A stretch of DNA of 38,009 nt from an uncultured Gammaproteobacteria bacterium (GCA_964429085.1 CAYSAP010000001.1:2448-40456), one strand, 5' to 3'. Shown: positions 2,127-32,394, counted from the stretch's first letter. Program-made: numbers and translations. The notes: generated by a model not told the origin, from the sequence alone.

Positions 2127-2128
2127 TT

Positions 2129-9982: not shown

Positions 9983-9985
9983 ACA

Positions 9986-13341: not shown

Positions 13342-13350
13342 CCCGTTACA

Positions 13351-15016: not shown

Positions 15017-15918
15017 GATGAATGCAACATTCTGCGGAGTAATTTCTGCCACATTCTGGATAACGGGTTTTTCGCTTCACGCATTTTAACCGTCGCCACC
15101 CAGTATGCCGTTTCCCGCCCGGTTTTCTCAATTTCTCCGAGCGCGTGAGACGGGGCTATATCGATCTCGCGGAATTTTTCTTTTTCCCAAAGCTTCACAA
15201 AAATAATAAACGAATAAAATGCCTGAAGGATTGCGAGCACCAGTCCATGTAATCCGTCTTTATACCCGCTTTGAGCAAAATATAATTTAATAAAATCCGA
15301 CACGGGAAATCGTATGGCATCGCGCCAACTAATCCGATACCCCGAAGATACATACTTTTGGACTTCGCTTTCGGTATAAATACGATGCATTTTCTCCAGA
15401 TACTGACTGAGCGTGTCGTAGTTATAGTGAACATACGCGTTTTCCAGCGTTCCCGTAGGACCACTCACTTCCAGATACTCGTGAACATGGCTTTCGGGAT
15501 ACGTACCTGTTCCTTTTTTAAACAACCGGAGCTGTCGGTCTGGCCACCATATGCCATGACGGATCCAGCGGCCGAAAATAATATTTTTTCGCGGAATCCA
15601 GTACCCGCTCACATCCGGCGCTGCAATACATTTTTTAATTTCACCAGCTAATTCGACCGGGATTTCCTCGTCGTCGTCGAGGCAGAGTATCCAATCGCCT
15701 GAAGCCTTGGTAAATCCGTAGTTTTTATTAACATTGAGCATGAGATTGTTCGGACGGATATAGACCTTTGCCCCAAACTCTCGGGCTACGTCAGACGTAG
15801 TATCCGTTGAACCGTTATCTATAACGATAATTTCGTTTGCCAATTTTTTGAGCGAGGTAATTGTACGGGTTAAACTATCGGCACGATTATAGGTACTGAT
15901 AACCACACTGAGCTTCAT
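15013..15918 (-). CDS. GT2-family glycosyltransferase (WaaE/KdtX-like architecture)
   Basis: KLSVVISTYNRADSL..IIVIDNGSTDTT..ILCLDDDE. The C-terminal helical region parallels that of 13351-14121. An ATGA overlap joins it to the flippase stop. Confidence 0.85.
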   Translation of the reverse strand: MKLSVVISTYNRADSLTRTITSLKKLANEIIVIDNGSTDTTSDVAREFGAKVYIRPNNLMLNVNKNYGFTKASGDWILCLDDDEEIPVELAGEIKKCIAAPDVSGYWIPRKNIIFGRWIRHGIWWPDRQLRLFKKGTGTYPESHVHEYLEVSGPTGTLENAYVHYNYDTLSQYLEKMHRIYTESEVQKYVSSGYRISWRDAIRFPVSDFIKLYFAQSGYKDGLHGLVLAILQAFYSFIIFVKLWEKEKFREIDIAPSHALGEIEKTGRETAYWVATVKMREAKNPLSRMWQKLLRRMLHSS

Positions 15919-17366: not shown

Positions 17367-18102
17367 ATCTAAGTCTCCTCCACGGACGGCTTCGGAAAAG
17401 TCGCCACAATCCGTATACATCTCCCATTGCCGTTTTCATTACCCGCACCGTTGAGCCCGGGTTATCAATCCACGTCACTGGTTCCTCATACAGCCGGAAT
17501 CCGCTCTTTTCACCGACGATAAGAAGCTCGCTATCAAAAAACCATTCGTTATCTTTTATATGGGGAAGTAGCTCTGTTACAACCTTGCGTGTTACGGCTT
17601 TAAACCCGCATTGGGCATCCGTAAAATTCACCCAGAATATCATTTTAATGAGTGCAATATACCCTTTGGACGTAATGGACCGCAACGCGCTCCTTCCGAA
17701 CACTCGGGCTCCCCGGGTATTACGGCTTCCTATGGCAATGTCAAAACCCCGTTCAAGAGAATGAAGCAACGAGGGAAAGTGTTTCAGATCCGTTGACAGG
17801 TCAATATCCATATATGCGAGATAATCGTAGGAGCCACTGCGCCAAACATGTTTCACTGCTCTGCCTCTGCCTTTTTGGCTTAGGTGCTCGACTGATACAG
17901 TCTGATACGTTTGACTCAATTCCCTGGCTATCCGGAGTGTGGAGTCTGTAGACGCGTTATCGGCAATGGTGATGTGCCAGGAAAAATCCGCACAGTTTTT
18001 TGATAAAAATCGGACAAGTGTAGCAACGCTGGCCGCTAACTCCGCGGCTTCATTATATACCGGCAGTACGACATTAACGCTTGGCTTTTCGTTGTTTTTC
18101 AT
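17353..18102 (-). CDS. GT2 polyprenyl-phosphate hexosyltransferase-like enzyme (DPM1/ALG5/GtrB-like catalytic domain, no TM)
   Basis: VNVVLPVYNEAAEL..ITIADNASTDST..YMDIDLS..IGSRN..DAQCGFKA..FDSELL. The codon at 18117 is TTG, and the first ATG is 18102. Confidence 0.75.
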   Translation of the reverse strand: MKNNEKPSVNVVLPVYNEAAELAASVATLVRFLSKNCADFSWHITIADNASTDSTLRIARELSQTYQTVSVEHLSQKGRGRAVKHVWRSGSYDYLAYMDIDLSTDLKHFPSLLHSLERGFDIAIGSRNTRGARVFGRSALRSITSKGYIALIKMIFWVNFTDAQCGFKAVTRKVVTELLPHIKDNEWFFDSELLIVGEKSGFRLYEEPVTWIDNPGSTVRVMKTAMGDVYGLWRLFRSRPWRRLRYGRH

Positions 18103-19735
18103 AAAGAATTGCTGCAAAAACTATAAGGGCCACAAAGGATATGCCGTTGCCTGTCGCTCTCACCGGCGTATCGGCAAACCGCATCTCCAGCAATGACTGG
18201 CCTGCCTCAATGCTCACAACCGGCAAACCGTCTGCAATACGCGGGGTTATTTCCGCATTATTAATAACATACCGCCACCCCGGAAAATATGCCTTGTTAA
18301 CTATGATATCCATGGAGCCTGCGGCCTGCATCGCGACATTCAGATCAACTGCCGATTCCCGCAGCTTTGTTACAGACAGACCGGTTCTTCCCTCTATTGT
18401 ATCAAACATAGCTTCCGATTCCTTTGTCGGCCGAATTAAATCATTGGGCAAATATTCATCCGATATTTTCGAAACTCGCCAGCGCAAATCCGCCGGCGTT
18501 TCAAACATCCCGCTCTGTGCGGCATACATATACTGCGGGACAAACCATTTTGCATTCAGCGCTATAATGAGCGTCCCAAAAAACAGCGCTAATGCAGCTT
18601 GTTTTCTCAATCCTGACACAGCATTGATGCCGATGCCTCCGAGAAGTGACAATCCAAACGCAGAGATAGCCAAAAACCGCCAAGGATATTGCAGATATGC
18701 AAAACCCGGAATCAACTCCCACATAAAAGCCGAATATTCGGTCGTAAAAAACACTGACAGGACGGTAATAAGTACTCCGGCCACAACTATGGCTTTTGTG
18801 TGCTTTGGTTTTACCCACATCCATAGGAAAAGCGATATGAGGGCGCCCATAATGTGAAGTTTCCCCAAAATAAATGACATTCCGTCTAAACATCCCGCGG
18901 CTGACCCCCCATATCCCCAAAGCGAACTCCATAATTGGCTTATACAAACAAAATGGTCGCGAAAATTAGCCGTCTCACTGACCTGACCGGCGATACTTGT
19001 GCTGCCCATTTCCAGCAGAGCGGGCAGCCAAAAAAATGCGGACAGTCCTAACCCCAACAGTACTATATACACATGAAACATAAAGCCTGACCCGTCAAAT
19101 TTTCGACGCATCGACTGAACTGCCCAATACGTCAAAATTCCGGAAACAATAAAAAGCATGGTTACGAATCCGAGTAACGTATGGGATAGTACCGCACCCG
19201 CCACACCAATAGCTCCGATGGGGAAGCGCAGATACCCGAGTGGCGACGTGTTACGCATCAGTGCATACAGAATAAGTGGCCAAAACATAAGGATCCAATA
19301 CTCTCCTACCGCCCCCCGTACATATATTTGCACTGCATGGTACGGGGCAAAAAGATACAGGAGCGAAGAAACGACAGCAGCCGGAACACCTAGAACACCA
19401 GAAACTACTGCGTAAAGCAGTATCGCCGGCAAAATTATTCCAACCGCAAACATTAATTTTGTGGCTAACAACGCCGGCACACCGAGCGCATATATGACGC
19501 CTCCGAAATAATATGGTAACGGCCCGTAAAAATTAAAAATCGGATATCCATATCCGAATCCCAAATCGGAAACCATACGAACAGGGAATTGCCCCTCCGA
19601 AAGAGCTCTCCCCATTGTGATGACCCGGGACACCTGGGTGTCATCGTGCATCGGGAAATACCCGGATGAAATAATCGGGCGTATCGCAATAAAACTTACA
19701 CAAAAAATAATAATCACCCACAATAATCTCTTCAT
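18074..19735 (-). CDS. Polytopic membrane protein, PTPS-related/GT-C-like
   Basis: The N-terminal ..FPMHDDTQVSRVITMGRALSEGQFPVRMVSDLGFGYGYPIFNFYGPLPYY recalls the 'PTPS_related' membrane family. The C-terminal ..NKAYFPGWRYVINN.. plus a terminal TM follow. It is a tandem paralog of 19732-21258. Confidence 0.65.
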   Translation of the reverse strand: MKRLLWVIIIFCVSFIAIRPIISSGYFPMHDDTQVSRVITMGRALSEGQFPVRMVSDLGFGYGYPIFNFYGPLPYYFGGVIYALGVPALLATKLMFAVGIILPAILLYAVVSGVLGVPAAVVSSLLYLFAPYHAVQIYVRGAVGEYWILMFWPLILYALMRNTSPLGYLRFPIGAIGVAGAVLSHTLLGFVTMLFIVSGILTYWAVQSMRRKFDGSGFMFHVYIVLLGLGLSAFFWLPALLEMGSTSIAGQVSETANFRDHFVCISQLWSSLWGYGGSAAGCLDGMSFILGKLHIMGALISLFLWMWVKPKHTKAIVVAGVLITVLSVFFTTEYSAFMWELIPGFAYLQYPWRFLAISAFGLSLLGGIGINAVSGLRKQAALALFFGTLIIALNAKWFVPQYMYAAQSGMFETPADLRWRVSKISDEYLPNDLIRPTKESEAMFDTIEGRTGLSVTKLRESAVDLNVAMQAAGSMDIIVNKAYFPGWRYVINNAEITPRIADGLPVVSIEAGQSLLEMRFADTPVRATGNGISFVALIVFAAILYEKQRKAKR

Positions 19736-21258
19736 GTACGTTTATATGTCTTTCTCATCCATACCAGATACCCTAACACGCTTACTACACTCAGCATATC
19801 GGCGGCAAAGCGCATCGGCGTTTCACGAAACGCAGCCTCAAGACGGTGACTGCCCTGGGGAACTACGACACGCATTACCCCAAATGCATTGCCGTAATTT
19901 ATAGGTATTAGCCGGTCGTCAATGGTTATCCCCCAGCCAGGATAATATATTTTGTTGATCTGAACGATACTTTCGGTATTTGCTTCAATGTTGACGTTTA
20001 TTCGTTCTCCTGCAAATGTCCTCGAGGTAAAAGAAACATCCCCGTCTATAACCTCAAGCGTTTCAATGGGTCTCGATAACGGAATGTCGGACACCCATCG
20101 CGGCATATATTCATTAGCGACAGTTGTCGTAGCTTCGTTCGTCGTGTAGTACCCTGCTTCCCGGTTAACAAAAATCACGCGTTGCAACTGCCCTCCCGCT
20201 CCCTGGATCCAAATAAGCAAAAAGACGACGCAAAGCAACGTGTTTTGCCAGCCTTTTACCCGTTCCAGCGCCATAGCGACAATCCATGGCCCCAATAATA
20301 CGGGGATGACCAAAAATCTGTAAGGAAACTGTACAAGCTGGCTTACTATCGGCAGTTTCCAAATGAAAGAACTCAAAGCCAGGCTCATCAGCAATCCGCC
20401 TAGTACCAAAACAGCTATGGAAATATCCCGGAGTGGCAATTTTTTTCTGGAGCCCATCAATATTCCAAGCGCGATAACGGTAGAAAACCCAAGAAGCGTG
20501 GCGTTTTCCATACTGATAAAGTATGTTTCGGGACGCGATATCACCGTAAATCCAAAACGCACGAGACCCTTTTCCAACAATGCCGGCATCCAAAAAAATG
20601 CTGCGGCTCCGGCTCCGAACACAAACGACGCCATATACCGAAGCCTGTGCGCATGTGCCAATATGAGGACAAAAATCGCAGCTCCGGCTATAAGAGCTAC
20701 TGTATTGTGACTTACAATAAGCAGCGCGACTGACGGGGCAACTAACCAAATCCAGCTTTTTTCTATGGCCAGTAGGAGAAGAGCCGCTGCAAACATTGCC
20801 AAAACCTCACCGACGGAACCCCGACGATACAAATCATACAGAAGATACGGAGAAAATATAAAACTTAGCGAACCGACAAGACTGGGTACTATCCTAAACC
20901 TATTCCTAAGCGCTATAAAAATTGCTGCGGCAGCACCAATGACCGACGCGCCAAGAATAACTTTTACCGAATCCAAAAAAGACAAGCCAATCAGATGAAG
21001 AAGGCTTCCTATATAGAGAAACCCCGGGTATAAAAAGTTGGCAACCGGATACCCGTAGCTATTATGTAACCTGCCCAAATACCGCACGGGGAATTGCCCG
21101 TTTGCCAGGCTTTGATAAAAAGCGGAAAGCCGTATCACCATCCACTCGCCATCATCGGATACGTAAAATCCGGCGTGTGTAAGCGGCCATAAAACAAGGG
21201 CGAGTGCTATCCCCATGACTATAAGCACCGGGATGAGTAACGAGTTCTTTTTTTTCAT
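19732..21258 (-). CDS. Polytopic membrane protein, PTPS-related/GT-C-like (paralog of 18074-19735)
   Basis: ..YVSDDGEWMVIRLSAFYQSLANGQFPVRYLGRLHNSYGYPVANFLYPGFLY.. and the C-terminal ..NKIYYPGWGITIDD..GSHRLEAAF plus a terminal TM. ATGA overlaps occur at both ends. Confidence 0.65.
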   Translation of the reverse strand: MKKKNSLLIPVLIVMGIALALVLWPLTHAGFYVSDDGEWMVIRLSAFYQSLANGQFPVRYLGRLHNSYGYPVANFLYPGFLYIGSLLHLIGLSFLDSVKVILGASVIGAAAAIFIALRNRFRIVPSLVGSLSFIFSPYLLYDLYRRGSVGEVLAMFAAALLLLAIEKSWIWLVAPSVALLIVSHNTVALIAGAAIFVLILAHAHRLRYMASFVFGAGAAAFFWMPALLEKGLVRFGFTVISRPETYFISMENATLLGFSTVIALGILMGSRKKLPLRDISIAVLVLGGLLMSLALSSFIWKLPIVSQLVQFPYRFLVIPVLLGPWIVAMALERVKGWQNTLLCVVFLLIWIQGAGGQLQRVIFVNREAGYYTTNEATTTVANEYMPRWVSDIPLSRPIETLEVIDGDVSFTSRTFAGERINVNIEANTESIVQINKIYYPGWGITIDDRLIPINYGNAFGVMRVVVPQGSHRLEAAFRETPMRFAADMLSVVSVLGYLVWMRKTYKRT

Positions 21259-22778
21259 GGTAACGGTGCTGGAGCCGTGCCAACGCGGTAAAAACGAAGC
21301 TTCTTATGATCTTCACGCTGCGCTTTTTCGTATTCTCCAATAAGCGTAAGCGACCATTTCGGCGGAAGCATCTGGCTTTCGTTTAATACGAAATATGTCG
21401 CGCTTGCAGAAGCGGCGTCCACTATTTCCTGAGGCATAACCTGCGGCAACGGCCATAACCCTGTGATTTTTACGTTCGGGTTGTCGACGAGGTATATTTC
21501 AATAGCATACGGCATAAGTCCGAACGTTCCCTCCGTAAAGACGTTTACTTTTTGTGCTGCCGCTTCCGCACTAAGATAGGCGACCACTTCTTTTACTCCT
21601 CCCCCTGCAGGCCAATCGTCGATAAATTGACCCCTATCTGCAAGCGGAATCGGCGCTTCTTTGGGGGCACGCACGATAACATTCGTCACATAAAGACTTG
21701 GAAGAAACACTATGGCCACCAGAGCCAAGCGCACCATTGGCCGGCGAATGCGGTCCCATGCGTGTACCACCGCATAAGCCGCAATGATAAGAAGCGGTAT
21801 TGCCATAAAAAGGATAAATCGGGGATATAATATTTTCGCGAAATTCGCCAACGCCGCAAATGGTAACAGCCACCAAAGATATAACAACATGCGCTCCCGT
21901 ACTTTCGGCCATCTCGTGAACCACGGCACCATTGCCATAATAAACAGCGGGATTGTCAGGTAATGGCGTAACCAATCAAACATGCCGCGCAGATTGCCTG
22001 CAAAAAAACGAAACGGCTGATTTAACCATTCGGAAACGGTAAAAATAAACACATTGTCCTTTTGCCCCACTATATGGAAAAAAGGTGATAGCCGTAACAC
22101 GCTGTAACATACCTGCGATAGTACGGCGGCAATAGCAACTAACCCCGTCCACCTAACCAATCTTGCCCATCGGTCTTTCCGTTCCCAGTCGAACAACAGG
22201 AGAGTTACAGGCAAAAAATAGAGCGTCAGAAAACCGGAGCTTTTATTGAGTATTCCGGCTCCCAACACCATACCAAGCATCAATGCCGTATCTAAGCGTA
22301 CGTAACGGGCAAGTAACACAGCCAGGTAGAGGCCCCAAACTGAAAAAGTTGAAACTAACGAATCATAGAGTGCGATACGGTCATACCATGCGGTAAACGG
22401 CACGATCACGTAGAGGAGGCCGGTCAGCCAGGCGATACGCTTATCACGAAACAGCTCATGCGACACCAGCCACAATCCTATAAGCGTCGCAGCTCCCGCT
22501 ACAACGCTCGTTAACCTGCCGGCAAATAGTGGATCCGTTGACTCGAATACTTTAAGAAGCACCATCATGATCCAAGTGAACATCGGCTGTTTTCCGTCTG
22601 TCAGGGATATAAACCGCCAATTGGCATCCCGCATCCCGATCTGGGACCATCGGATATATATTGCTTCGTCCGTGAAAATAGGAAGGGCGGTGAGATTAAC
22701 AAGTCTCGTTAGGGCATAGAGTACTAAGATAGCTGCCGCTCCAAGTATCCACCAAAGCCATTGTTTGGTAATCCGCAT
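21255..22778 (-). CDS. PMT_2/ArnT-like GT-C membrane glycosyltransferase (GT39/GT83-like)
   Basis: TM1 is followed by ALPIFTDEAIYIRWSQ (acidic loop). The protein is polytopic with a soluble C-terminal domain. Confidence 0.8.
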   Translation of the reverse strand: MRITKQWLWWILGAAAILVLYALTRLVNLTALPIFTDEAIYIRWSQIGMRDANWRFISLTDGKQPMFTWIMMVLLKVFESTDPLFAGRLTSVVAGAATLIGLWLVSHELFRDKRIAWLTGLLYVIVPFTAWYDRIALYDSLVSTFSVWGLYLAVLLARYVRLDTALMLGMVLGAGILNKSSGFLTLYFLPVTLLLFDWERKDRWARLVRWTGLVAIAAVLSQVCYSVLRLSPFFHIVGQKDNVFIFTVSEWLNQPFRFFAGNLRGMFDWLRHYLTIPLFIMAMVPWFTRWPKVRERMLLYLWWLLPFAALANFAKILYPRFILFMAIPLLIIAAYAVVHAWDRIRRPMVRLALVAIVFLPSLYVTNVIVRAPKEAPIPLADRGQFIDDWPAGGGVKEVVAYLSAEAAAQKVNVFTEGTFGLMPYAIEIYLVDNPNVKITGLWPLPQVMPQEIVDAASASATYFVLNESQMLPPKWSLTLIGEYEKAQREDHKKLRFYRVGTAPAPLP

Positions 22779-22784
22779 ATCTTG

Positions 22785-22793
22785 ATTATACCA
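22785..22793 (-). promoter_or_regulatory. Extended -10 element TGgTATAAT, 6 nt upstream of ATG 22778 (leaderless configuration)
   Basis: The minus strand reads TAG-ttttcacgggattcc-TGGTATAAT-caagat-ATG. No Shine-Dalgarno is present and the -35 is poor. Confidence 0.35.
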
Positions 22794-22808: not shown

Positions 22809-23954
22809 CTAGGAAACAGAAGTGGATTTCCCGCTGCTGCGAGCCGGAATCAAGAGGCTTACAACTGCTATTCCTACGCCAATCCAGATAATTGATGTTT
22901 TCCAAAGCTGTTCAGTGACGGAATACTCTCCGAAATAGAGATACGGAGCATAACTAACTACAAGGCCCAGGGATATGACGGTTGCAAATGTCACGAGCTT
23001 ACTATAGTGCGCATTAAGCGCGACAAACGGCAGAATCCACACCCAATACCAGGGAAGAAATTCCCGCCTCAATAGCACCAGGGCAAGACCAAACATTATG
23101 GCCAAGAACATCCAGGTCACATTCTTCTTCAGCAAAAATACCGGTACCAAAAATATAGTCATAAACTTTGAGGCGACGGAGAGGGCGAGAAAAAACCATG
23201 ACGCAAGTGCATTTTTTTTGTAATAGCATATGGCCACTAACGCAAACGCGACCAATACTATATCGTTATGCCCGCTTACCAGCGATTCGATCAGAATAAG
23301 CGGATTGAGAGCAAACAACGCCAGTCCGTAAATTTTTTGTTTCGGACGTACTATATCCAAGGCATGCACAAGCGCCCAACACGCAAGGAGGTAAAAACCT
23401 GCAATCATAAACTTTGTCGCAAATAATACGAGAATAAAATATCCCAACCCGAAAAAATACGGTACCAGACTCAGCAAAATCCACAACGGCGTATATGCAC
23501 TCGTCAGATGTGTCCACCGCATGAAGTTCGTCCATGGATCTATACCAGAAAACTGCAGCGGCGTTACGGCGTAAGGATTTTGGTGATATACCAATACCGT
23601 TTTTGCTGTAAATAAATAGTTAAAAAAATCATAGGAAAATGCTGCAGGGTACGAAAACACGAGTATGACGGTCACGGCAATAATCAGCCTCCATATTGCC
23701 GCAAGTGTTATTTCCCCTTTTTTTACATAATGAAGCAGACCGGCATACAGTCCGAACAATGAAAAAAGTATGGAGACATATATAAGGGTCGAAAGCGGCC
23801 TCTGGTAGAATCCCACAAACTGAAACCCTTTTTGTATCGTTTGAACCAAACTAGCACGCGAAAGTGTGAGGTTGAGATCGACCTGCGTATAACTAAAAAA
23901 CAACAATGCAATAGCGGCAACTATGTATCCGGAAAAAGGTTTTGAATGTTTCAT
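22809..23954 (-). CDS. Polytopic membrane protein, GT87/DUF2029-like GT-C candidate
   Basis: The protein is about 381 aa and almost entirely hydrophobic. It carries ..FSYDFFNYLFTAKTVLVYHQNPY.. and ..SGHNDIVLVAF.. motifs reminiscent of PimE/GT87-type mannosyltransferases. Start ATG 23954 forms an ATGA overlap. The longest ORF extends to 24059. Confidence 0.5.
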   Translation of the reverse strand: MKHSKPFSGYIVAAIALLFFSYTQVDLNLTLSRASLVQTIQKGFQFVGFYQRPLSTLIYVSILFSLFGLYAGLLHYVKKGEITLAAIWRLIIAVTVILVFSYPAAFSYDFFNYLFTAKTVLVYHQNPYAVTPLQFSGIDPWTNFMRWTHLTSAYTPLWILLSLVPYFFGLGYFILVLFATKFMIAGFYLLACWALVHALDIVRPKQKIYGLALFALNPLILIESLVSGHNDIVLVAFALVAICYYKKNALASWFFLALSVASKFMTIFLVPVFLLKKNVTWMFLAIMFGLALVLLRREFLPWYWVWILPFVALNAHYSKLVTFATVISLGLVVSYAPYLYFGEYSVTEQLWKTSIIWIGVGIAVVSLLIPARSSGKSTSVS

Positions 23955-24703
23955 GTATATTTCCCCTGCCACGCATTTATCCGGATACGCAGGATATCCA
24001 CTAATCCCTGCGCGGAATCTTTGATAGGACTCACCCTTCTGGTTTCCACATAATGCCATTCTACCGGCACTTCTTTTATCTTAAACCCGAGTTTTTGTGC
24101 AAGAAACAGCGCTTCGATATCAAAACCGGCAGTCACCATGGGGCCGTGCACTTCATGCATGTTTCCATATAATTCGAGACGGGAAAATATATCTTTGGCC
24201 ACAGCGCGCTTAAATGCTTTAAACCCGCATTGCGTATCCGTTATACCCCTTAACCCTAACAATAATCCGCGCAATATCATAAATCCTCTCGCCATGATAA
24301 CCCGCGAAACCGGCGCACCCTCTCTTCTTCTGTTGCGGCTCCCTATAACAACGTCAAATCCGCGATCAAACCACGGCAATACTTTTTCCAGTTCCGAGAT
24401 GGGCGTTGCTTGGTCCAAATCCGAAAATAGCACGATCGACCCCTTGGCTTTCAGCATTCCGGATATAACGGTACCAGCTTTGCCTCTGTGCGGATTATGA
24501 TAAACGGTAAATCCCGGATTTGCCTGGGCGAATGCGTCAAGCAGCTTGGGTGAACCGTCCGTTGAACCGTCATCCACCAAGAGTGCCTCCCAGGCAAAGG
24601 ATTGGCGCTCCAGATAGCGCGAGACTTTATCAAGGCTTCCTAGCCGGATATTCGTTTCTTCGTTGTACGAAGGAATAATGACAGATAAAAACGGGCTGCT
24701 CAT
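23951..24703 (-). CDS. GT2 polyprenyl-phosphate hexosyltransferase-like enzyme (DPM1/ALG5/GtrB-like, no TM)
   Basis: FLSVIIPSYNEETNI..LLVDDGSTDGS..FSDLDQA..IGSRN..DTQCGFKAF..FDIEALF. Start ATG 24703 forms an ATGA overlap. The longest ORF extends to 24763. Confidence 0.8.
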   Translation of the reverse strand: MSSPFLSVIIPSYNEETNIRLGSLDKVSRYLERQSFAWEALLVDDGSTDGSPKLLDAFAQANPGFTVYHNPHRGKAGTVISGMLKAKGSIVLFSDLDQATPISELEKVLPWFDRGFDVVIGSRNRRREGAPVSRVIMARGFMILRGLLLGLRGITDTQCGFKAFKRAVAKDIFSRLELYGNMHEVHGPMVTAGFDIEALFLAQKLGFKIKEVPVEWHYVETRRVSPIKDSAQGLVDILRIRINAWQGKYT

Positions 24704-26301
24704 TTCGCTTCCTCTCCTTTGTAATGAACCAGTCCCATAACTTTGATAAACGATACCTGCCACTCGCCGTCAATTTCCGCCCTTCCGAATCCGGCGATCT
24801 CCCAAAGCGGATGCCCGAGAGGCTTACAGTCCTGCATCTCACAAATAATAATGAGCTGATCCGTAACACTCTTTCTTTCCGGATCCTTTTCGACGTTTTC
24901 TATGACAACTGGAGGATCCCCCCATATTTCAAAAAAATATCGGTACACATGATCGGAGTTAGAACTCGTCAGCAGCGCAAAGTTGTAGGGTTTGCCGCCT
25001 GTTTTTTCATATGCAGCTTTTGCAATCATTTTGGCTTGCCCCAGCTGATTATTCGGCTCGAATTTAAACGGCCTTCCTTCCCAATTGAGATATACAAGCG
25101 CCATGACAATAACGGCGGTTACTGCTTTACCGATCCTCGCCGCACGAACGCTTCGCAGAACAAGAGCCACTAACAAAAACGGCAGGGCAAAAAACAATCC
25201 GAAATAGTAATCATATATACCCTTTTTATAAAATCCAAAAAGCGTCAGCGGAATAATAAACCAAAGCAAAAATAGCACGACGCCGTAAAGTCCCGCCGCA
25301 GGATTGCCTGCGCGCGCGTTCTTGTTCCAGTTCACCGGCACTATGCGGGTGACATACGCGACGAGCAATCCCAAAGACGCAAAAAGGCTGAACTTTGTTC
25401 CGATTTCCCATATATGTTGGGCGACAACCGGAATATTTACCCATTGTTCCGGTGGCGGCAACCTAAATACGAGTCTGCCGAACAACCGGTAACTTACCTC
25501 TGATATATTTTTCCAGAACGTGCCTGTTACAAGTCCAGTGCCCTCGCCCTCACGGAGAAAGTTAACTATCGATATCGTGTTCGGAAACCCGTGACGCAGT
25601 TCAAACGCCAGAAAAGGACCGTACCCGATAATAAATCCCAACCCACCGAGTACATAATAGGTAAACCATGTTTTCGATCTTCCGTACATGAGATACCATA
25701 CGCCGACGACAGGAAACAAAAATAGAAAAAGGTAGTGCAATTGCAAACCAATACCCAATACGACCCCGATCCAAAACAGCAGCTTAGGATTATTTTTTGC
25801 CACGGAGTGCCATAATAAAAGGACAAGGAGCGAAGAAAAAAACGGAACCAGATTAGGATTCCAGGAGGAACGGGAATACGCAATGACTATCGGCGAAAAA
25901 CAATACAGTATTGCTGCAGTCAGTCCAACCCATTCGTCAAATAGGTCGCGGCCGAGCCTGTAGACTACATACATAGTTGCAATCCCAAAAAGCGCAACCA
26001 TGACGGCCGCTCCCGCAGGGTTAAGTCCCGATGCCCATACAAACGGCAACATAAAATAATAATAGATAGGTCCTAAAAAGAATCCTCCTACCGAAGCGGT
26101 TGGCCCAAGCAGCGTAAACGTATGATCCACGATCATGCGCTTGATAACCAGCATATCCCGTCCTTCATCGCCCAGGAACGTCATATACTCGGAAATACGG
26201 TAAAGCCGAAGATACGCGCCGAGCAGCAATATGACACATAACGCCATGAAGGGCAGATAAGGCGTGATCCGATGAAACAATTTAGTCATCCGTAATATCA
26301 T
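24700..26301 (-). CDS. PMT_2/ArnT-like GT-C membrane glycosyltransferase
   Basis: TM1 is followed by YMTFLGDEGRDMLVIKRM (acidic loop). The protein is polytopic with a soluble C-terminal domain. Start ATG 26301 forms an ATGA overlap. The longest ORF extends to 26379. Confidence 0.8.
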   Translation of the reverse strand: MILRMTKLFHRITPYLPFMALCVILLLGAYLRLYRISEYMTFLGDEGRDMLVIKRMIVDHTFTLLGPTASVGGFFLGPIYYYFMLPFVWASGLNPAGAAVMVALFGIATMYVVYRLGRDLFDEWVGLTAAILYCFSPIVIAYSRSSWNPNLVPFFSSLLVLLLWHSVAKNNPKLLFWIGVVLGIGLQLHYLFLFLFPVVGVWYLMYGRSKTWFTYYVLGGLGFIIGYGPFLAFELRHGFPNTISIVNFLREGEGTGLVTGTFWKNISEVSYRLFGRLVFRLPPPEQWVNIPVVAQHIWEIGTKFSLFASLGLLVAYVTRIVPVNWNKNARAGNPAAGLYGVVLFLLWFIIPLTLFGFYKKGIYDYYFGLFFALPFLLVALVLRSVRAARIGKAVTAVIVMALVYLNWEGRPFKFEPNNQLGQAKMIAKAAYEKTGGKPYNFALLTSSNSDHVYRYFFEIWGDPPVVIENVEKDPERKSVTDQLIIICEMQDCKPLGHPLWEIAGFGRAEIDGEWQVSFIKVMGLVHYKGEEAK

Positions 26302-27410
26302 GCATTCTTCCAAATAACCTTGGAATACATCGTGTAATTCCAAAAGAGCCCGATGCCGACGCCTATAAGATAAAACCATCGATACATGTCGTTCCCGAAA
26401 AGTAAGATACCCAGTGCAACGGTTCCCGACTGGATCAATAAGGCGCCTATACTGGTTGCGTTAAACTGTAAAAACTTCGGAACAAGCCTGAACCCCTGGA
26501 TCTTTTTTCCGCGGAATGTCCAATTATTATTAAGGAAAAAATTTGATATGATCGCGCATTCCGCTCCGATAGCGCTACCGGCGACAGGATGAAATCCCGA
26601 TCCCACCATCAATTCTAATATCGTGGTATTGATAATAAATCCTATGGAGCCTACAACGGCAAATTTAGAAAATGAACCGTGTCGTAACTGCCGGGCTCTC
26701 GCTGTTCCGACATAGAGAAATACGTTCCGGATATACTGAAGCGGAGCGATTTTTGACCTGCCGAACCGGCGATCAGTAAATTTAATAGGAACTTCGCCGA
26801 CTTTGGCTCCCGCAAGTATCGCGTTATGAAGAAATGCTATCTGATACACATAGCCGCTATGTTTTGCGACTTTGTGTTTTACCATTTCAAAATATGATTT
26901 CCTCAGTACCCGATATCCGCCGGTCCAATCGTGCACATGGGAAAAACCCAAACCAAACCGGACTATTGAGTTTCCTACAACACTAAAAATTTTTCTATGA
27001 ATCCCCCAATTTTCCGGTATGGAACCGCCCGGTATGTAGCGGCTTCCCACCACAAAATCGGCTCCTCCTGATATCTTTTTGAAAAACTCCGGCAAACTCG
27101 ACGGGTCATGAGATAAATCCGCATCCATCTGCCCGATGATATCGGCATCCAGGGTGTCAATCGCGTACGTCATCCCGCGGAGTAACGCTTTGCCTAAACC
27201 CTCTTTCTTCCCGCTTAGAATTTTGACATTGTCATGGGTCTTTGCAAATTCTCTAACTTCATCCTGTGTTCCATCCGGCGAGTTATCATCCACGACGAGA
27301 ATCGTGAATGTGTACCCTTTAATCAAGCGGGTCACCTCCATGAGGCGCGAGAGCATGGTTTTGATATTATCCCGCTCGTTGTATGTCGGAAGAATGATGA
27401 CTGCTTTCAT
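26298..27410 (-). CDS. Polyprenyl-phosphate mannosyl/hexosyl-transferase (DPM1/Ppm1/GtrB-like GT2) fused to a C-terminal GtrA-like 4-TM domain
   Basis: MKAVIILPTYNERDNI..ILVVDDNSPDGT..QMDADLSHDP..VGSRY. The C-terminal FSKFAVVGSIGFIINTTILELMV...ISNFFLNNNWTFR is the GtrA hallmark. Confidence 0.85.
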   Translation of the reverse strand: MKAVIILPTYNERDNIKTMLSRLMEVTRLIKGYTFTILVVDDNSPDGTQDEVREFAKTHDNVKILSGKKEGLGKALLRGMTYAIDTLDADIIGQMDADLSHDPSSLPEFFKKISGGADFVVGSRYIPGGSIPENWGIHRKIFSVVGNSIVRFGLGFSHVHDWTGGYRVLRKSYFEMVKHKVAKHSGYVYQIAFLHNAILAGAKVGEVPIKFTDRRFGRSKIAPLQYIRNVFLYVGTARARQLRHGSFSKFAVVGSIGFIINTTILELMVGSGFHPVAGSAIGAECAIISNFFLNNNWTFRGKKIQGFRLVPKFLQFNATSIGALLIQSGTVALGILLFGNDMYRWFYLIGVGIGLFWNYTMYSKVIWKNA

Positions 27411-27433: not shown

Positions 27434-28390
27434 CTAAACTCGTTCTCTCCAGTAGTTGAGAAGATCCTCAGCAGTTTTTGTGAAGGGGACTTCCGGTTTC
27501 CAACCAGTTTTGGCCACAAATTTGGAATTATCACCGATAAGTATCGGTACATCGGAAGGCCGCATACGCTTGGGGTCCTGTTTTATCTCTACTTTCACGG
27601 TACTCATGCCCAGCATCATCTTTAACACGTCCTCAATTTTTATCGAGGTACCGGTCGCAATATTGTAGACCTCGCCCGGATCGCATTTTTCTGCTGCCAA
27701 AAGATATGCACGAACCATATCACGCACATCGGTGTAGTCACGCGATGCTTCCAGGTTGCCGACATAAATTACCGGCTCCTGCTTTCCTTTTTCGATCAGT
27801 GCAATTTGCTTAGCAAACGTGGACTCGGCAAACGTATCACCACGGCGCGGACCGGTATGGTTAAACCCACGGGTTCTGATAATACGCATATTGTACGACT
27901 CAAAATACTGATACCCAAGATAGTCCATGGCAACCTTGCTTACCGCATACGGAGAAAGCGGACGCAATGGATTCGTTTCTTTGATTGGTACTTCATTTTC
28001 ATGAACGAGTCCGTATTCTTCAGAAGAACAGGCAATCTGAATCACCGGATCGATGCCTACTTGGCGGACTGCCTCAAACACGTTGGCACTTCCTACGATG
28101 TTTACTTCCAGCGTCACTGCAGGAGAACCCCATGATGTCGGAACAAACGACTGGGCTGCCAGATGAAAAATATAATCGGGTTTTATCTTATTGATAGTCG
28201 TATACAAACTGTGGCTATCCAGAAGATCTGCATCCTCCAGTTGTAACTTAGGGATGATGGACTCAATATGATCCATTTTGCTCCGTGGCCGGCATAATCC
28301 GTAGACCTCAAATCCTTTAGAAAGCAGCAGCTCAGCCATGTGGCTGCCGACAAATCCCGCAATACCCGTGATCAATACTTTTTTGGCCAT
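27434..28390 (-). CDS. Extended SDR of the GDP-mannose 4,6-dehydratase / GDP-6-deoxy-D-mannose reductase (Gmd/Rmd) family
   Basis: VLITGIAGFVGSH (Rossmann), SPYAVSK (YxxxK), GFNHTGPRRG, VGNLEASRDYTDVRD, QDPKRMRPSD, TGWKP. The layout parallels Rmd/Gmd. A strong AGGAGG Shine-Dalgarno is present. Confidence 0.75.
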   Translation of the reverse strand: MAKKVLITGIAGFVGSHMAELLLSKGFEVYGLCRPRSKMDHIESIIPKLQLEDADLLDSHSLYTTINKIKPDYIFHLAAQSFVPTSWGSPAVTLEVNIVGSANVFEAVRQVGIDPVIQIACSSEEYGLVHENEVPIKETNPLRPLSPYAVSKVAMDYLGYQYFESYNMRIIRTRGFNHTGPRRGDTFAESTFAKQIALIEKGKQEPVIYVGNLEASRDYTDVRDMVRAYLLAAEKCDPGEVYNIATGTSIKIEDVLKMMLGMSTVKVEIKQDPKRMRPSDVPILIGDNSKFVAKTGWKPEVPFTKTAEDLLNYWRERV

Positions 28391-28422: not shown

Positions 28423-29718
28423 TTACATTCTTCCAACGCCGTAATACATAAATCCGAGCTCCCTCATGCGGGTGGGCTCGTAAATATTTCTCCCATCAAA
28501 TAATACCAGATGCTTCATGCCTTTGGCTAGACGGACAAGATCTATTTGCCGGAATTCATTCCATTCGGTCACGATTGCTACTGCATCGGCCTCATGCGCT
28601 GCTTCATACGGGTCTTTGGCAAACGTGACACCATGCGGCAGCTTGGACTTGGCTTTTTCCATAGCTATAGGGTCAAATACGGTAATGTCAGCGCCCTTAT
28701 TCATAAGCGACGTAATAATATCTATGGAAGGAGCTTCCCGCATATCGTCCGTATCCGGTTTAAAGGCCAATCCCAAAATGGCAATTGTTTTCCCCTTGAG
28801 CGAAGTAAAGTGATTAACAATTTTATCAACGAAATTATTTCTTGCTTCCATATTTACCTCATGCACGGATTTAAGAAGTTTGAAATCATAGTTATATTCG
28901 CCGGCAATGGCGATCAACGCTTTGACATCTTTCGGGAAGCAACTGCCTCCGTATCCTACTCCCGGATATAAGAAGCTTCGTCCGATACGTTTATCAAGAC
29001 CCACGCCTTCGAGTACGCGCTCAACATCTGCGCCTACCTTTTCCGCCAAAAATCCTATCGCGTTGGCAAATGAAATTTTCGTTGCCAGCATGGAATTAGA
29101 TGCATATTTAATGAGTTCTGCGGTTTCCACGTTACAAAGAACGTTCTCCCCATCTATAGATTTATGAAGTTCGACCAAAATATCCCGCGCTCTGTCGGAA
29201 TTTGTTCCAATAACCACACGGTCAGGATGCATCGTGTCTGAAAGTCCGGTCCCTTCGCGTAAAAATTCCGGAGCCGAAGCTATCGCAAACGATGACCCTT
29301 CAGGTTTGACACGATGTATAATTTCGGAAATCTTCCTGCCCGTTCCGGGAGGAACAGTACTCTTAGTCACGACCACTTTGTAACCCGACAGCGACGTACC
29401 TATTTCTTCTGCCGCTGAAAATACCTGGCTCAAATCCGCTTCACCATTAGACTTGGAAGGTGTTCCCACCGCTATAAATACCACTTGAGAGGCTGCCGTT
29501 CCCTCTTTGTAATCAGTCGTAAATTTGAGTCTTCCTGCGGCGAGATTTCGTTTGAGTAACTCATCGAGCCCTGGCTCATAGATTAACGGGTCTCCTTTTT
29601 TCAGACGGTCAATTTTTTCTTTTGTTCTTCCTACCACCCAGATCGTGTTCCCCAAGTCGGCAAATACCGCAGCGGTAACAAGTCCTACGTATCCGTGTCC
29701 GATAAAAGAAATGGTCAT
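28423..29718 (-). CDS. ugd: UDP-glucose 6-dehydrogenase
   Basis: N-terminal ISFIGHGYVGLVTAAVFA, catalytic GGSCFPKDV, and the C-terminal UDP-binding region ..LGLAFKPDTDDMREAP... Confidence 0.9.
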   Translation of the reverse strand: MTISFIGHGYVGLVTAAVFADLGNTIWVVGRTKEKIDRLKKGDPLIYEPGLDELLKRNLAAGRLKFTTDYKEGTAASQVVFIAVGTPSKSNGEADLSQVFSAAEEIGTSLSGYKVVVTKSTVPPGTGRKISEIIHRVKPEGSSFAIASAPEFLREGTGLSDTMHPDRVVIGTNSDRARDILVELHKSIDGENVLCNVETAELIKYASNSMLATKISFANAIGFLAEKVGADVERVLEGVGLDKRIGRSFLYPGVGYGGSCFPKDVKALIAIAGEYNYDFKLLKSVHEVNMEARNNFVDKIVNHFTSLKGKTIAILGLAFKPDTDDMREAPSIDIITSLMNKGADITVFDPIAMEKAKSKLPHGVTFAKDPYEAAHEADAVAIVTEWNEFRQIDLVRLAKGMKHLVLFDGRNIYEPTRMRELGFMYYGVGRM

Positions 29719-29728
29719 AATGAAAGCT

Positions 29729-29757
29729 AGTATACGAAAAATAATAGTGCCTGTACA
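29729..29757 (-). promoter_or_regulatory. Candidate promoter TGTACA-N17-TATACT, 10 nt upstream of the ugd ATG
   Basis: It lies in the 65-nt intergenic gap, the largest in the array. The -35 candidate sits inside the 10-bp palindrome CCTGTACAGG (29750-29759). No Shine-Dalgarno precedes ugd. Confidence 0.25.
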
Positions 29758-29783: not shown

Positions 29784-30662
29784 TCAGAGGCCTGCGTCTT
29801 CCTGGCTCTTCATTTCGGCTACCCCTTCATCAAACCCGCGCATGGTGACACCGAGCGACCGGATCTTGTCGTTTTGCAAAACAGCATACTGCGGAATAGG
29901 GGCGCGGCCAGCAAAAAACTCGGCGAATGTCGTTTTCTTAACCAGCGTCGGGTCACAGGAATATACCCGTGCAATTGTTTTTGCCACATCAAACGGAGAC
30001 ACTGCCTGGCTTCCTACCACATGATAGATACCCGTGGCAGAATTGGTAAGGAGTACCTCCATAGCACCTGCTATATCATCTATGAAGGTCGGGACAAATA
30101 GCTGGTCGGCCGGAGCTACGACCTCGGAACCCGCCAAAAGCCGCTCGAGCATTTTATGGACAAAATCTTTCTTCCCAACTTGATGTGCGCGGTACGGATT
30201 CGATATGCGAATGACTAACCCCTTATCGCCTAATCCGAGCACCCGCTTTGCTCCTTCCGACTTTGTTGTTGCATACCAACTCAACGGATGTATATCGTCG
30301 CTTTCCGTGTATAGTTGCCTCAAACCGCCAAACGCATAATCCGTATCGACGTAGAGGAGGTGTTTGTTACTCGCCTTGCATGCATCAATGATATGTTCCG
30401 TTGCAATAACGTTTACCTTCCAGGCCGCACTTTCCGCGCCTAATCCGCGATCTGCTTCTGCCTGCTGCACATTTGTATAGGCCGCAAGATGCAGTACCCA
30501 GGAAGATTCCATATCATCCTTGATCTTGGCTATAATGTCTTCGCGGTTGGTTATATCCACACCGTTTTCGAGGCTGTAGTTAACAAACGCATGTTTTGAA
30601 GATAACAACTCCGTAATTCTTGACCCCACCAATCCTGAAAGTCCGGTCCCGAGTATTTTCAT
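29784..30662 (-). CDS. rmlD: RmlD-family dTDP-4-keto-6-deoxyhexose reductase-like SDR
   Basis: MKILGTGLSGLVGSRI, DTDYAFGG and YATTK match the RmlD substrate-binding family. Start ATG 30662 forms an ATGA overlap with the rmlB stop. The longest ORF extends to 30695. Confidence 0.7.
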   Translation of the reverse strand: MKILGTGLSGLVGSRITELLSSKHAFVNYSLENGVDITNREDIIAKIKDDMESSWVLHLAAYTNVQQAEADRGLGAESAAWKVNVIATEHIIDACKASNKHLLYVDTDYAFGGLRQLYTESDDIHPLSWYATTKSEGAKRVLGLGDKGLVIRISNPYRAHQVGKKDFVHKMLERLLAGSEVVAPADQLFVPTFIDDIAGAMEVLLTNSATGIYHVVGSQAVSPFDVAKTIARVYSCDPTLVKKTTFAEFFAGRAPIPQYAVLQNDKIRSLGVTMRGFDEGVAEMKSQEDAGL

Positions 30663-31645
30663 ACAGCGTACACCCCACTTTTTACCCGCCTCCACCAGTC
30701 TTCATGCTCTGTGTACCAACGCACCGTATGTTGGAGCCATGTATCGAAACCCTGCTCAGGCTGCCATCCCAACTCCGTATGGATGCGGGTCCAATCAACC
30801 GCATAACGGCGGTCATGTCCCGGGCGATCTTTCACATACTCTATCTCTTCGGTACTGCGCCCCATGAGGCCAAGAATTTTGTGAACAATACTGAGATTGT
30901 TTACATCCTCCGTAAGCCCGCCGACGCAATAGGTTTCCCCCACGTTGCCCCGGGATAATACGGCGTCGATGGCACGGCAATGGTCATCAACATGCAGCCA
31001 ATCCCGCACGTATAACCCATCTCCGTAAACCGGAACTTTTTTTCCTTCGATAAGATTTGTTATTGCAAGCGGAATGAATTTTTCAGGAAACTGAAAAGGG
31101 CCGTAATTGTTTGAACAGTTCGTTATACTGATAGGGAGGCCGAACGTGTGGTGATATGCACGGACCAAGTGATCGCTTCCTGCCTTGCTGGCCGAATACG
31201 GACTCCGGGGATCATAGGGCGTATGCTCGTTAAACTTTTCTGATCCGTCAAGTGGTAGTGACCCGAAGACTTCATCGGTCGAGATGTGATGAAAACGCTT
31301 CACGTTGGCCTTGAGAGCCGCATCGAGCAGTACCTGCGTTCCCACTACATTCGTCATAACAAAAGGAGCAGCTTCCAGGATAGACCGATCCACATGGCTC
31401 TCGGCCGCAAAATGCACCACCGTATCGATTCCCTTCATGGCAAGAGCCACCGCATTCGTGTCACAGATATCACCCTGAATAAACCGATACTTCGGATTTT
31501 TTTCTACGGACGCGAGATTCTCGAGGTTTCCGGCATACGTAAGCTTATCAAAGTTTATAACCTCATCCTCAGGATGAGCAGCAAGCCAGTAGATGATAAA
31601 GTTAGCGCCGATGAATCCGGCTCCACCTGTAACAAGTATTCGCAT
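30659..31645 (-). CDS. rmlB: dTDP-glucose 4,6-dehydratase
   Basis: MRILVTGGAGFIGANF..INFDKLTYAGNLENL..HFAAESHVDRS..YSASKAGSDHLVRAY. Start ATG 31645 forms a TAATG 1-nt overlap with the rmlA stop. The longest ORF extends to 31747. Confidence 0.9.
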   Translation of the reverse strand: MRILVTGGAGFIGANFIIYWLAAHPEDEVINFDKLTYAGNLENLASVEKNPKYRFIQGDICDTNAVALAMKGIDTVVHFAAESHVDRSILEAAPFVMTNVVGTQVLLDAALKANVKRFHHISTDEVFGSLPLDGSEKFNEHTPYDPRSPYSASKAGSDHLVRAYHHTFGLPISITNCSNNYGPFQFPEKFIPLAITNLIEGKKVPVYGDGLYVRDWLHVDDHCRAIDAVLSRGNVGETYCVGGLTEDVNNLSIVHKILGLMGRSTEEIEYVKDRPGHDRRYAVDWTRIHTELGWQPEQGFDTWLQHTVRWYTEHEDWWRRVKSGVYAV

Positions 31646-32394
31646 TACAGTTTCCCCTGTTTTACTAATTGTGCAACCTGAATATTTGCCTCTAACAGTT
31701 CGTCGTGCGACGTGCCTGCATCTACCCACCAATCGATAGTTTCGCAAAGAAGCGACTGCTCTTTGAGATACATATTATTTAAATCGGTCACCTCCAGCTG
31801 TCCGCGGTCAGATGGTTTCAAATCGCGGGCAAAATCAAATACCCGGTGATCGTAGACATAAATACCGGTTTGCGCGATATCGGATTTGGGATGTTCGGGT
31901 TTTTCCTCGATACTGACCACTTTTCCTTCTTTGTCCATTTCTATGACACCATACTGCTTCGCAAGTTTCTCGCGGCGTACGCCGAATACCATCGCTGCCT
32001 TTTGATCGCGGGCGAGTATACGTTCAAATCGGTTAATCGATGCGGTGAGATCAACGTTAAAAATATTATCTCCCAGAATCACCAGAATCGGCTCCTTTCG
32101 AGCAAACTCTTCTGCAAGCTTGAGCCCGTCAGCAATTCCGCCAGTCGGATTCTGCTGGATTGCATAATAAAGGCGCAAACCGAATTCTTCTCCGGAAAGC
32201 AGTAAGTTGGCAAAATCTCCGACATGCCCGCCACTTGTGATCAGAAGTACTTCTTTCATGCCGCTTCGCTTCATCATTTCCAGCGGATAGTAAATCATCG
32301 GCTTGTTATACACCGGCAGAAGATGCTTATTGGTTACCGCGGTAAGCGGACGAAGTCTTGTTGCTAACCCTCCGGCGAGAATAACACCTTTCAT
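31645..32394 (-). CDS. rmlA: Glucose-1-phosphate thymidylyltransferase-like sugar nucleotidyltransferase (short form)
   Basis: MKGVILAGGLATRLRPLTAVTNKHLLPVYNKPMIYYPL..VILGDNIF closely parallels the RmlA N-terminal signature. An AAGGAG Shine-Dalgarno is present. Confidence 0.8.
   Translation of the reverse strand: MKGVILAGGLATRLRPLTAVTNKHLLPVYNKPMIYYPLEMMKRSGMKEVLLITSGGHVGDFANLLLSGEEFGLRLYYAIQQNPTGGIADGLKLAEEFARKEPILVILGDNIFNVDLTASINRFERILARDQKAAMVFGVRREKLAKQYGVIEMDKEGKVVSIEEKPEHPKSDIAQTGIYVYDHRVFDFARDLKPSDRGQLEVTDLNNMYLKEQSLLCETIDWWVDAGTSHDELLEANIQVAQLVKQGKL

Follow-up and report, generated by a model that had tools for sequence, protein, structure and literature searches.

What do four consecutive genes build when each of two glycosyltransferases of the GT2 family is followed by a polytopic protein of the GT-C type, and do the two pairs stand alone or belong to something larger? 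The question is raised by a stretch of 38,009 nucleotides (GCA_964429085.1, CAYSAP010000001.1:2448-40456; hereafter the window), in which a near-continuous run of minus-strand genes extends from 4189 to 37334. The original prediction, made from this sequence, read four back-to-back genes as two cassettes, each with a polyprenyl-phosphate-sugar synthase gene followed by a GT-C gene, welded together by ATGA overlaps. Four consecutive minus-strand open reading frames (ORFs) are indeed found there, and exactly the same products, of 370, 533, 250, and 381 residues, are annotated in the NCBI record of an 86,865-bp contig. They are called P1 to P4 here.

26298..27410, minus strand: P1, a GT2 domain joined to a GtrA-like four-helix membrane domain (Pfam GT2 5e-27, GtrA_DPMS_TM 1e-19)
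24700..26301, minus strand: P2, a polytopic GT-C of the Pfam PMT_2 family with about 10 hydrophobic segments and a conserved C-terminal soluble domain
23951..24703, minus strand: P3, a soluble or peripheral protein of 250 residues with a GT2 domain and a C-terminal helix at residues 226-245
22809..23954, minus strand: P4, a polytopic protein with about 10 hydrophobic segments, GT87/MptA_B-like GT-C at the family level, from a family conserved in the Microgenomates group

The analysis leads us to think it fairly probable that these four genes are two multi-component transmembrane glycosylation modules set within one large cell-envelope glycan locus of Candidatus Gottesmanbacteria (Patescibacteria). 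The identity of the proteins, the conservation of their pairing, and the organization of the surrounding locus each bear on this answer and are taken in turn.

P1 aligns over residues 1-367 with the dolichyl-phosphate mannose synthase (DPMS) of P. furiosus (PfDPMS; 5mlz) at 4e-41, with the four-helix membrane domain included. In this alignment, MDADLSHDP of P1 lies opposite MDADLQHPP, the metal-binding motif of the archaeal enzyme. Within the membrane domain, Asn residues occupy the positions of Asn248 and Arg341, while the position of Phe338 holds Leu, with a Phe one residue later. A GT2 domain with a DXD motif and a GtrA-like four-helix membrane domain in a single chain is the published type-III DPMS architecture, and the predicted fusion of GT2 and GtrA is borne out by both Pfam matches. 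These sequence comparisons support the assignment of P1 as a type-III-DPMS-like polyprenyl-phosphate hexose synthase. The membrane domain of DPMS has been proposed to flip the product, and type III, under a strict motif definition, has been reported only in hyperthermophilic archaea (PMC12992685, 2026). P1 is a bacterial protein with this architecture and with aligned polar-pocket residues.

P3 contains GT2 as its only Pfam domain, and no hydrophobic segment was found along the protein. Its family profile, searched against PDB, places DPMS (1.7e-23), GtrB (2e-19), and ArnC (4e-18) ahead of other GT2 structures, and also matches chondroitin synthase at 7e-16. The AlphaFold2 model of P3 has a pLDDT of 81, and its top 17 Foldseek matches are solely ArnC, DPMS, and GtrB, with TM-scores of 0.68-0.74 (normalised to P3) and alignments spanning 236-265 columns that include the C-terminal helix. 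JGI and NCBI annotate P3 orthologues as dolichyl-phosphate beta-glucosyltransferase. Profile and predicted structure support P3 as an ALG5/GtrB/ArnC-like polyprenyl-phosphate sugar synthase, in line with its prediction as a soluble DPM1/ALG5-like GT2. Both GT2 proteins fall in the polyprenyl-phosphate glycosyltransferase group, P1 through its match to 5mlz and P3 through its profile and Foldseek rankings.

Each GT2 gene is followed, as predicted, by a gene for a polytopic GT-C-type protein, and the two belong to different families, PMT_2 for P2 and GT87-like for P4. P2 scores 44.5 bits against Pfam PMT_2 (cutoff 26.1; 2.5e-11), and FLGDEGRD, which follows the first transmembrane segment (TM1) in the first outer loop, is invariant in 27 orthologues (GDEGRD being residues 40-45). 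With a score above the gathering threshold, the sequence justifies the name PMT_2-family GT-C; the name ArnT-like, which P2 had been given, is too specific for a protein with no sequence match to a solved GT-C. P4 was assigned through its relatives. Pfam GT87 is matched by 25 of 29 orthologues, and of six tested singly, five exceed the cutoff of 25 bits with scores of 26-40. These five are 53-66% identical to P4, while the closest orthologue tested, at 74% identity, stays under the cutoff with 17.5 bits. Orthologues also carry a precomputed match to PF26314, MptA_B_family. Within the family, D26 after TM1 is nearly invariant and H229-N230-D231 is invariant, and the AlphaFold2 model of P4 (pLDDT 82) is all-helical. 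The label GT87-like GT-C is supported for the family, whose members pass the GT87 model, and is marginal for the window protein, which itself falls below that model. A shared fold of the P4 and P2 families was set aside as too weak to serve as evidence, hhalign having given just 45% probability over 110 columns. The family membership of P1, P2, and P3 and the family-level placement of P4 are established by these searches.

The relationship between the two pairs was followed across 80 species-level GTDB genomes in which the locus was found, with orthologues assigned by BLASTP of all ORFs; the denominators of the counts given per junction and per start vary between about 50 and 80 related loci. 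P3 lies directly before P4 in all 79 P3-P4 pairs called in the 80 loci, with only two gaps longer than 100 nt, and P1 and P2 are adjacent in 57 loci and travel with genes for a dehydrogenase (UGDH) and an SDR protein. The check proposed with the prediction, whether the pairs co-occur and stay adjacent in related genomes, comes out in favor of both. An extra GT2 gene stands between P1 and P2 in two loci. The pairs also come apart as units: 12 Levybacteria-type loci that keep P3 and P4 together with the following gene, P5, have no P2 homologue within the locus, 6-10 kb upstream being covered. By these comparisons, P3-P4 is the more deeply conserved pair and begins its own unit in Levybacteria. 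Conserved adjacency and the separability of the modules are established, and to this extent the two tandem cassettes that had been proposed are real evolutionary modules. They are not symmetrical or self-contained, as the locus continues through P5 to P8, a Wzx-type flippase, and YfhO. The proposal that three-component logic occurs twice holds for synthase and GT-C and fails for a flippase belonging to P3-P4. P1 carries its fused GtrA_DPMS_TM domain (1e-19) as a candidate flippase component; no flippase-like gene adjoins P3-P4, and Wzx is encoded 6.5 kb further downstream in the locus.

The four-gene block is an ordinary part of a cell-surface sugar locus with more than 20 genes, which comes from an uncultured bacterium of the groundwater type and is syntenic across Candidatus Gottesmanbacteria. 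About 55 species-level genomes of Gottesmanbacteria share the fixed gene order RmlA, RmlB, an RmlD-like reductase, UGDH, a 318-residue SDR (SDR318), P1, and P2, followed by P3, P4, P5, P6, P7, P8, Wzx, three GT2 genes, and YfhO. The host follows from the titles of related records in the GTDB scan, which place the locus in Candidatus Gottesmanbacteria and more distant copies in Woesebacteria and Levybacteria. Many records with this Patescibacteria locus (GTDB loci L010, L013-L015, L017, and others) are titled 'uncultured Gammaproteobacteria bacterium', which are apparently placeholder names and not real taxonomy. The nearest neighbors of the block in the window are the following.

28423..29718, minus strand: UGDH, UDP-glucose/GDP-mannose dehydrogenase family, with three Pfam UDPG_MGDP_dh domains (1e-36 to 1e-59)
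27434..28390, minus strand: SDR318, an extended SDR of 318 residues, Rmd/GMD type, preceded by a strong Shine-Dalgarno (SD) sequence, AAGGAGG
21255..22778, minus strand: P5, a second PMT_2-family GT-C (PMT_2 1.8e-11)
19732-21258, minus strand: P6, polytopic, PTPS_related/YfhO-like (GT-C clan), a paralogue of P7
18074-19735, minus strand: P7, polytopic, PTPS_related/YfhO-like (GT-C clan), with an ATGA overlap with P6
17353-18102, minus strand: P8, a soluble GT2, a paralogue of P3 (28% identity, 3e-28)
15915-17366, minus strand: Wzx-type flippase (Polysacc_synt_3 1.5e-48)

P5 lies downstream of P4 in all related loci in which synteny was followed (73 loci). P6 and P7 share 24% identity (5e-32); P7 itself has weak YfhO and PTPS_related matches, and its orthologues match PF10131. 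P3 and P8 both contain the motif D[TA]QCGFKA, and the best NCBIfam matches of P8 are PgfS, AglJ, Dol-P-hexose transferase, and ArnC, likewise synthases of polyprenyl-phosphate sugars. The position of P8, a soluble GT2 paralogous to P3, directly before the Wzx-type flippase recalls the GacI/GacK arrangement. Further downstream are two clear YfhO proteins, a GT4, more GT2s, and a methyltransferase, which brings the locus to three synthase-like GT2 proteins (P1, P3, and P8), at least seven GT-C-like proteins, and Wzx. The flanks (plus-strand 786-3778 and 4189-5898) encode additional polytopic proteins of 549, 446, and 569 residues; the first has a weak PMT_2 match (8e-5), and the last has about 11 hydrophobic segments and no family match. 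In the Levybacteria-type loci (L074-L086; for example, L075 at 9171-21110), P3-P4-P5 is followed by up to eight consecutive large polytopic proteins that are YfhO-like, P6/P7-like, or unassigned, an unusually long array of GT-C-like genes, before a P8-like GT2 and Wzx appear.

Conservation gene for gene in dozens of Gottesmanbacteria species, and in part in Levybacteria, suggests that a major surface glycan or a glycoprotein modification is the probable product of the locus. Such a product would bear on the interaction of these small bacteria with their environment, and the cell envelopes of Patescibacteria are almost unstudied. A full-text search of the literature on Gottesmanbacteria glycosyltransferases brought up no work that concerns the present locus, judged by title and abstract.

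The mechanism that we infer, in its lipid acceptor, sugars, flipping step, final acceptors, and assignment of each GT-C to a donor, would begin at the cytoplasmic face of the membrane. There, P1 would load polyprenyl phosphate with a hexose taken from a nucleotide sugar; homology to DPMS suggests that the donor would be a GDP-sugar, for example GDP-mannose. The fused GtrA-like membrane domain may carry the product to the outer face, and P2, as a PMT_2 GT-C, would transfer the P1-derived sugar to an extracytoplasmic acceptor. P3, as a peripheral GT2, would form a second polyprenyl-phosphate sugar, probably from a UDP-sugar in view of its affinity to ALG5, GtrB, and ArnC, and P4, as a GT87/MptA_B-like GT-C, would use this second donor outside the membrane. 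The assignment of donors to GT-C enzymes is read from gene adjacency alone.

Since one co-oriented locus holds three synthase-like GT2 proteins and at least seven of the GT-C-like kind, a one-to-one pairing of donor and transferase is not established, and the same count speaks for the main rival explanation. P1, P3, and P8 may feed common pools of polyprenyl-phosphate sugars for all of the GT-C proteins (P2, P4-P7, and the two YfhO proteins). A single envelope glycan would then be built or decorated outside the membrane, much as polyprenyl-phosphate-mannose is used with PimE, MptA, and MptB in mycobacteria, and the order of synthase and GT-C genes would not denote exclusive pairs. The families of P2, P4, and P5 (PMT_2 and GT87/MptA_B) have known users of polyprenyl- or dolichyl-phosphate-mannose, and P1 is DPMS-like. 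In addition, a single P3 heads the array of up to eight polytopic proteins in Levybacteria-type loci, and in L. lactis one flippase serves three GT-A/GT-C pairs (PMC8035078). However, P3 and P4 are adjacent in every locus examined, P1 and P2 are kept and lost together, as dedicated pairs would be, and a conserved predicted promoter between P4 and P5, described below, sets P4 apart from the rest of the array. Shared donors are therefore a possible explanation that we hold to be the less probable one.

The original prediction placed its emphasis on coupled translation. The three junctions of the block are stop/start overlaps of 4 nt (26301-26298, 24703-24700, and 23954-23951), in each of which the ATG shares the reading frame of the downstream ORF.

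26298..26301, minus strand: ATGA, P1 stop and annotated P2 start; overlap of 4 nt in 4/57 relatives
24700..24703, minus strand: ATGA, P2 stop and P3 start; overlap of 4 nt in 34/63 relatives; SD-like AAAGGAGAGG within the last P2 codons
23951..23954, minus strand: ATGA, P3 stop and P4 start; overlap of 4 nt in 20/78 relatives

These overlaps could be a selected device that couples the translation of synthase and GT-C, yielding near-equal amounts and possibly a complex. In this genome the overlaps are real and agree with the deposited annotation, and SD-like motifs are rare before the internal genes (4/55 loci for P1, 6/58 for P2, and 14/78 for P4), so that reinitiation after termination is plausible at such packed junctions. 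Comparative data, however, disfavor selection for coupling and make it quite improbable. The best-kept overlap of the three lies between the cassettes, at P2-P3, and not within the synthase-GT-C pairs, and the same overlap is kept in 41/50 relatives at RmlB-RmlD, 37/56 at P6-P7, and 32/56 at P5-P6. ATGA overlaps occur at 9 of the 22 same-strand junctions of the cluster, among them RmlB-RmlD, P5-P6, P6-P7, Wzx-GT2, and GT2-GT2, and those of the four-gene block are not above this background. The genes are always closely packed, with median gaps of +4 nt for P1-P2, -4 nt for P2-P3, and +3 nt for P3-P4, and in the closest relatives P4 is preceded by a gap of 28-56 nt. Longer overlaps are conserved elsewhere in the locus, with 29 or 23 nt at P7-P8 in 36/49 loci and 14 nt at P8-Wzx in 24/49.

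The start codons bear on the same point. In P2, the Met common to relatives is that of MTK... at 26289, 12 nt downstream of the annotated start at 26301 and 8 nt past the P1 stop. The upstream Met of MILR at 26301 is otherwise present in the closest relative only, and this ATG is probably not the ancestral start. The P3 start at 24703 agrees with conserved N-termini (MSSPFLS..., with orthologues of 250 residues) and with the SD-like AAAGGAGAGG, and the P4 start at 23954 agrees with the N-termini of its homologues (MK..., with orthologues of about 380 residues). Alternative starts further upstream, at 24059, 24763, and 26379, would abolish the overlaps and are ruled out by homologue lengths and N-terminal alignments; the downstream genes do not begin at these ATGs. 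The picture of cassettes welded by ATGA fits the present genome rather than the system. Across relatives, the overlaps appear to mirror the general compaction of the operon; they permit translational coupling and are not a conserved or specific feature of synthase-GT-C pairs, and near-stoichiometric synthesis of synthase and GT-C would follow by inference only. Taken together, the functional reading of a synthase followed by a GT-C appears largely right, while comparative data do not support the weight that was placed on ATGA welds and on two self-contained cassettes.

Conserved promoter-like motifs suggest where the transcription unit that holds the two modules begins and ends.

29729..29757, minus strand: promoter-like TGTACA-17 nt-TATACT, 10 nt upstream of the UGDH start, listed by a consensus scan
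22785..22793, minus strand: extended -10 box TGGTATAAT, 6 nt before the P5 ATG (22778)

TAnnAT is found 4-12 nt before the P5 start in 67 of 73 related loci, and in 59 of the 73 it is an exact TATAAT. When the same layout was sought before every other gene of the cluster, it occurred in 0-22% of loci; P3 has it in 14 of 76, of which 13 are Levybacteria-type, and all 13 Levybacteria-type loci possess it. The motif before P5 persists even in loci whose P4-P5 gap is down to 7 nt, where it runs into the 3' end of P4. An SD-like motif precedes P5 in just 8/73 loci. A -10 box close before a start codon is an accepted computational signature of leaderless or near-leaderless transcripts (PMC3160421, PMC6028130), and the P5 transcript is likely to be of this kind, made from an internal promoter. 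The predicted promoter after P4 therefore marks the downstream boundary of the four-gene block, and the corresponding layout before P3 in Levybacteria predicts a P3-P4 unit with its own promoter there. The spacer between P4 and P5 is 30 nt in the window and 300-420 nt in about a dozen loci (L009, L011-L014, L022, L027, L044, L047, L065, and L073). In L003, L004, and L011 it contains a reverse-strand ORF of 73 residues with a weak PQ-loop match.

At the other end, the TGTACA-TATACT layout is also present in the closest relatives, with TATA[CA]T 5-13 nt before the UGDH start in 17/51 loci, and is a candidate start of the unit holding the four genes. A terminator scan placed none in any intergenic gap of the block. 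The predicted units are RmlA-RmlB-RmlD, UGDH-SDR318-P1-P2-P3-P4, and P5 onward, so that the four genes would probably be the distal part of a six-gene transcription unit.

UGDH lies upstream of SDR318-P1-P2 in every Gottesmanbacteria locus, and SDR318 is the most conserved protein of the cluster, mostly 78-97% identical across these loci. The best PDB match of SDR318 is 2pk3, a GDP-6-deoxy-D-lyxo-4-hexulose reductase (4e-84), followed by a GDP-heptose 4,6-dehydratase (1.5e-71); its score against NCBIfam gmd is under the cutoff. SDR318 is Rmd/GMD-like, yet no separate GDP-mannose dehydratase is encoded nearby, and by its sequence it might be bifunctional. Its similarity to ArnA and UXS is weak (1e-9 to 2e-12). 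An Arn-like pathway of UGDH, decarboxylase, ArnC-like, and ArnT-like proteins was therefore ruled out, as SDR318 is far nearer to the GDP-sugar Rmd/GMD enzymes. Upstream, at 29784-32394, RmlA, RmlB, and the RmlD-like reductase are present, and RmlC, the 3,5-epimerase, was not found in the cluster. Since the reductase also scores 160.6 bits against an rmlD equivalog cutoff of 224, the dTDP-sugar may not be L-rhamnose.

Several of these results weigh against two dedicated modules. P2, alone or as a 27-sequence family profile, has no PDB match at E<=1, ArnT and Pmt included. P4 itself has no Pfam match even at E<=10 and no NCBIfam or PDB match, and its family profile likewise has no PDB match. 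Foldseek found nothing significant for the P4 model, with a best E-value of 0.4; the highest but non-significant probabilities went to AglB, ALG12, STT3, ArnT, and PimE, at TM-scores of about 0.3 or lower, and the comparison with PimE (9dm5) gave a non-significant TM-score of 0.30 with an E-value of 1.8. Furthermore, gene adjacency alone is no proof that P2 uses the product of P1 or that P4 uses that of P3. SDR318 is Rmd/GMD-like rather than a UDP-sugar enzyme, which leaves UGDH unexplained. Finally, the promoters are assigned from motif conservation across genomes, since a generic promoter and terminator scan of the window gave no more than shuffled sequences did.

That one or both GT2 proteins are ordinary cytoplasmic GT2s acting on a lipid-pyrophosphate-linked or soluble acceptor, with polymerases, ligases, or transporters as their polytopic neighbors, would suit the great breadth of the GT2 family, the chondroitin synthase match of P3, and the want of significant matches between P2 or P4 and solved GT-C structures, but it is very improbable indeed given that P1 matches DPMS over its full length, membrane domain included, that sequence and structure rankings of P3 place three characterised polyprenyl-phosphate GT2s first, and that P2 and the P4 orthologues exceed the gathering scores of PMT_2 and GT87.

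The two-module reading can also be carried further. P1 would then be the mesophilic, bacterial counterpart of the archaeal type-III DPMS, able both to make and to flip its lipid-linked sugar, perhaps from a GDP-6-deoxyhexose supplied by the co-transcribed SDR318 and not from GDP-mannose. The whole locus would be an extracytoplasmic assembly line, with three polyprenyl-phosphate sugars as the donors from which at least seven GT-C enzymes make the main Gottesmanbacteria envelope glycan. We regard this extension as unlikely; if true, it would represent a strategy like that of mycobacterial lipoarabinomannan (LAM) in an ultra-small bacterium.

A comparison with known multi-component glycosylation systems shows a common logic in a different setting. 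GtrB/GtrA/GtrC, CsbB/GtcA/YfhO, GacI/J/K/L, and L. lactis CsdAB/CD/EF with CflA all employ a GT2 to charge polyprenyl phosphate with a sugar, a flippase to bring the product across, and a polytopic GT-C for transfer on the outside. This logic of GT-A, flippase, and GT-C has been reviewed, together with soluble GT-A variants, Wzx-type flippases, and adjacent GT-A/GT-C gene pairs (PMC8035078), each of which has its likeness here. The rhamnose-type nucleotide-sugar genes of the present locus likewise recall Gram-positive clusters for rhamnose-rich wall polysaccharides. In contrast to these systems, the present one is known from sequence and belongs to Patescibacteria. It also differs in that P1 combines synthase and flippase-like domain in one chain, P3 has no evident small partner of the GtrA or GacJ type, the focal GT-C families are PMT_2 and GT87-like and not GtrC or YfhO, and the locus holds many more GT-C than synthase genes.

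The order of dehydrogenase, SDR, GT2, and GT-C resembles that of ugd-arnA-arnC-arnT in the ArnC/ArnT pathway of lipid A aminoarabinose modification, which operates with Ugd and ArnA, and the P3 model has ArnC among its best structural matches. The differences are considerable: the locus contains no aminotransferase, formyltransferase, deformylase, or ArnE/F, P2 has no sequence match to ArnT, and the host has no lipid A.

The mycobacterial system of PimE (GT87), MptA, and MptB with Ppm1 is approached through P4, whose orthologues match GT87 and MptA_B_family. Like PimE, P4 is polytopic, with about 380 residues, and its near-invariant Asp after TM1 lies where PimE has the catalytic residue D58 (PMC12041525). 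A gene resembling a polyprenyl-phosphate-mannose (PPM) synthase is present in the same operon as P4. In contrast, the window P4 by itself fails the GT87 model and its predicted structure reaches a TM-score of only 0.30 to PimE, the gene directly upstream of P4 is ALG5/GtrB-like and not Ppm1-like, and the locus has no phosphatidylinositol-mannoside context.

The likeness of P1 to type-III DPMS (PfDPMS; 5mlz, 9ep0) extends from the architecture to the aligned DAD and GSRY..GG motifs, and the Asn at the Arg341 position is as in non-Thermococcales members. P1 differs in being bacterial, from a lineage of metagenome-assembled genomes of mesophilic type, and its lipid would be bacterial polyprenyl phosphate rather than dolichyl phosphate.

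Described counterparts thus exist for GT-A/GT-C pairs, soluble GT-A proteins, Wzx-type flippases, the fused DPMS-GtrA architecture, stop/start overlaps, and leaderless promoters, and no new mechanism is proposed, because the logic of synthase, flippase, and GT-C is already established. The novelty lies in the lineage of the host, in how strongly the locus is conserved, in how many GT-C genes follow one another, and in a bacterial relative of an enzyme type recently called archaeal-only. The locus offers two well-defined and separable modules for expression and assay, a bacterial relative of archaeal type-III DPMS, and operon boundaries that are clearly predicted by conserved -10 boxes lying 6-9 nt ahead of start codons.

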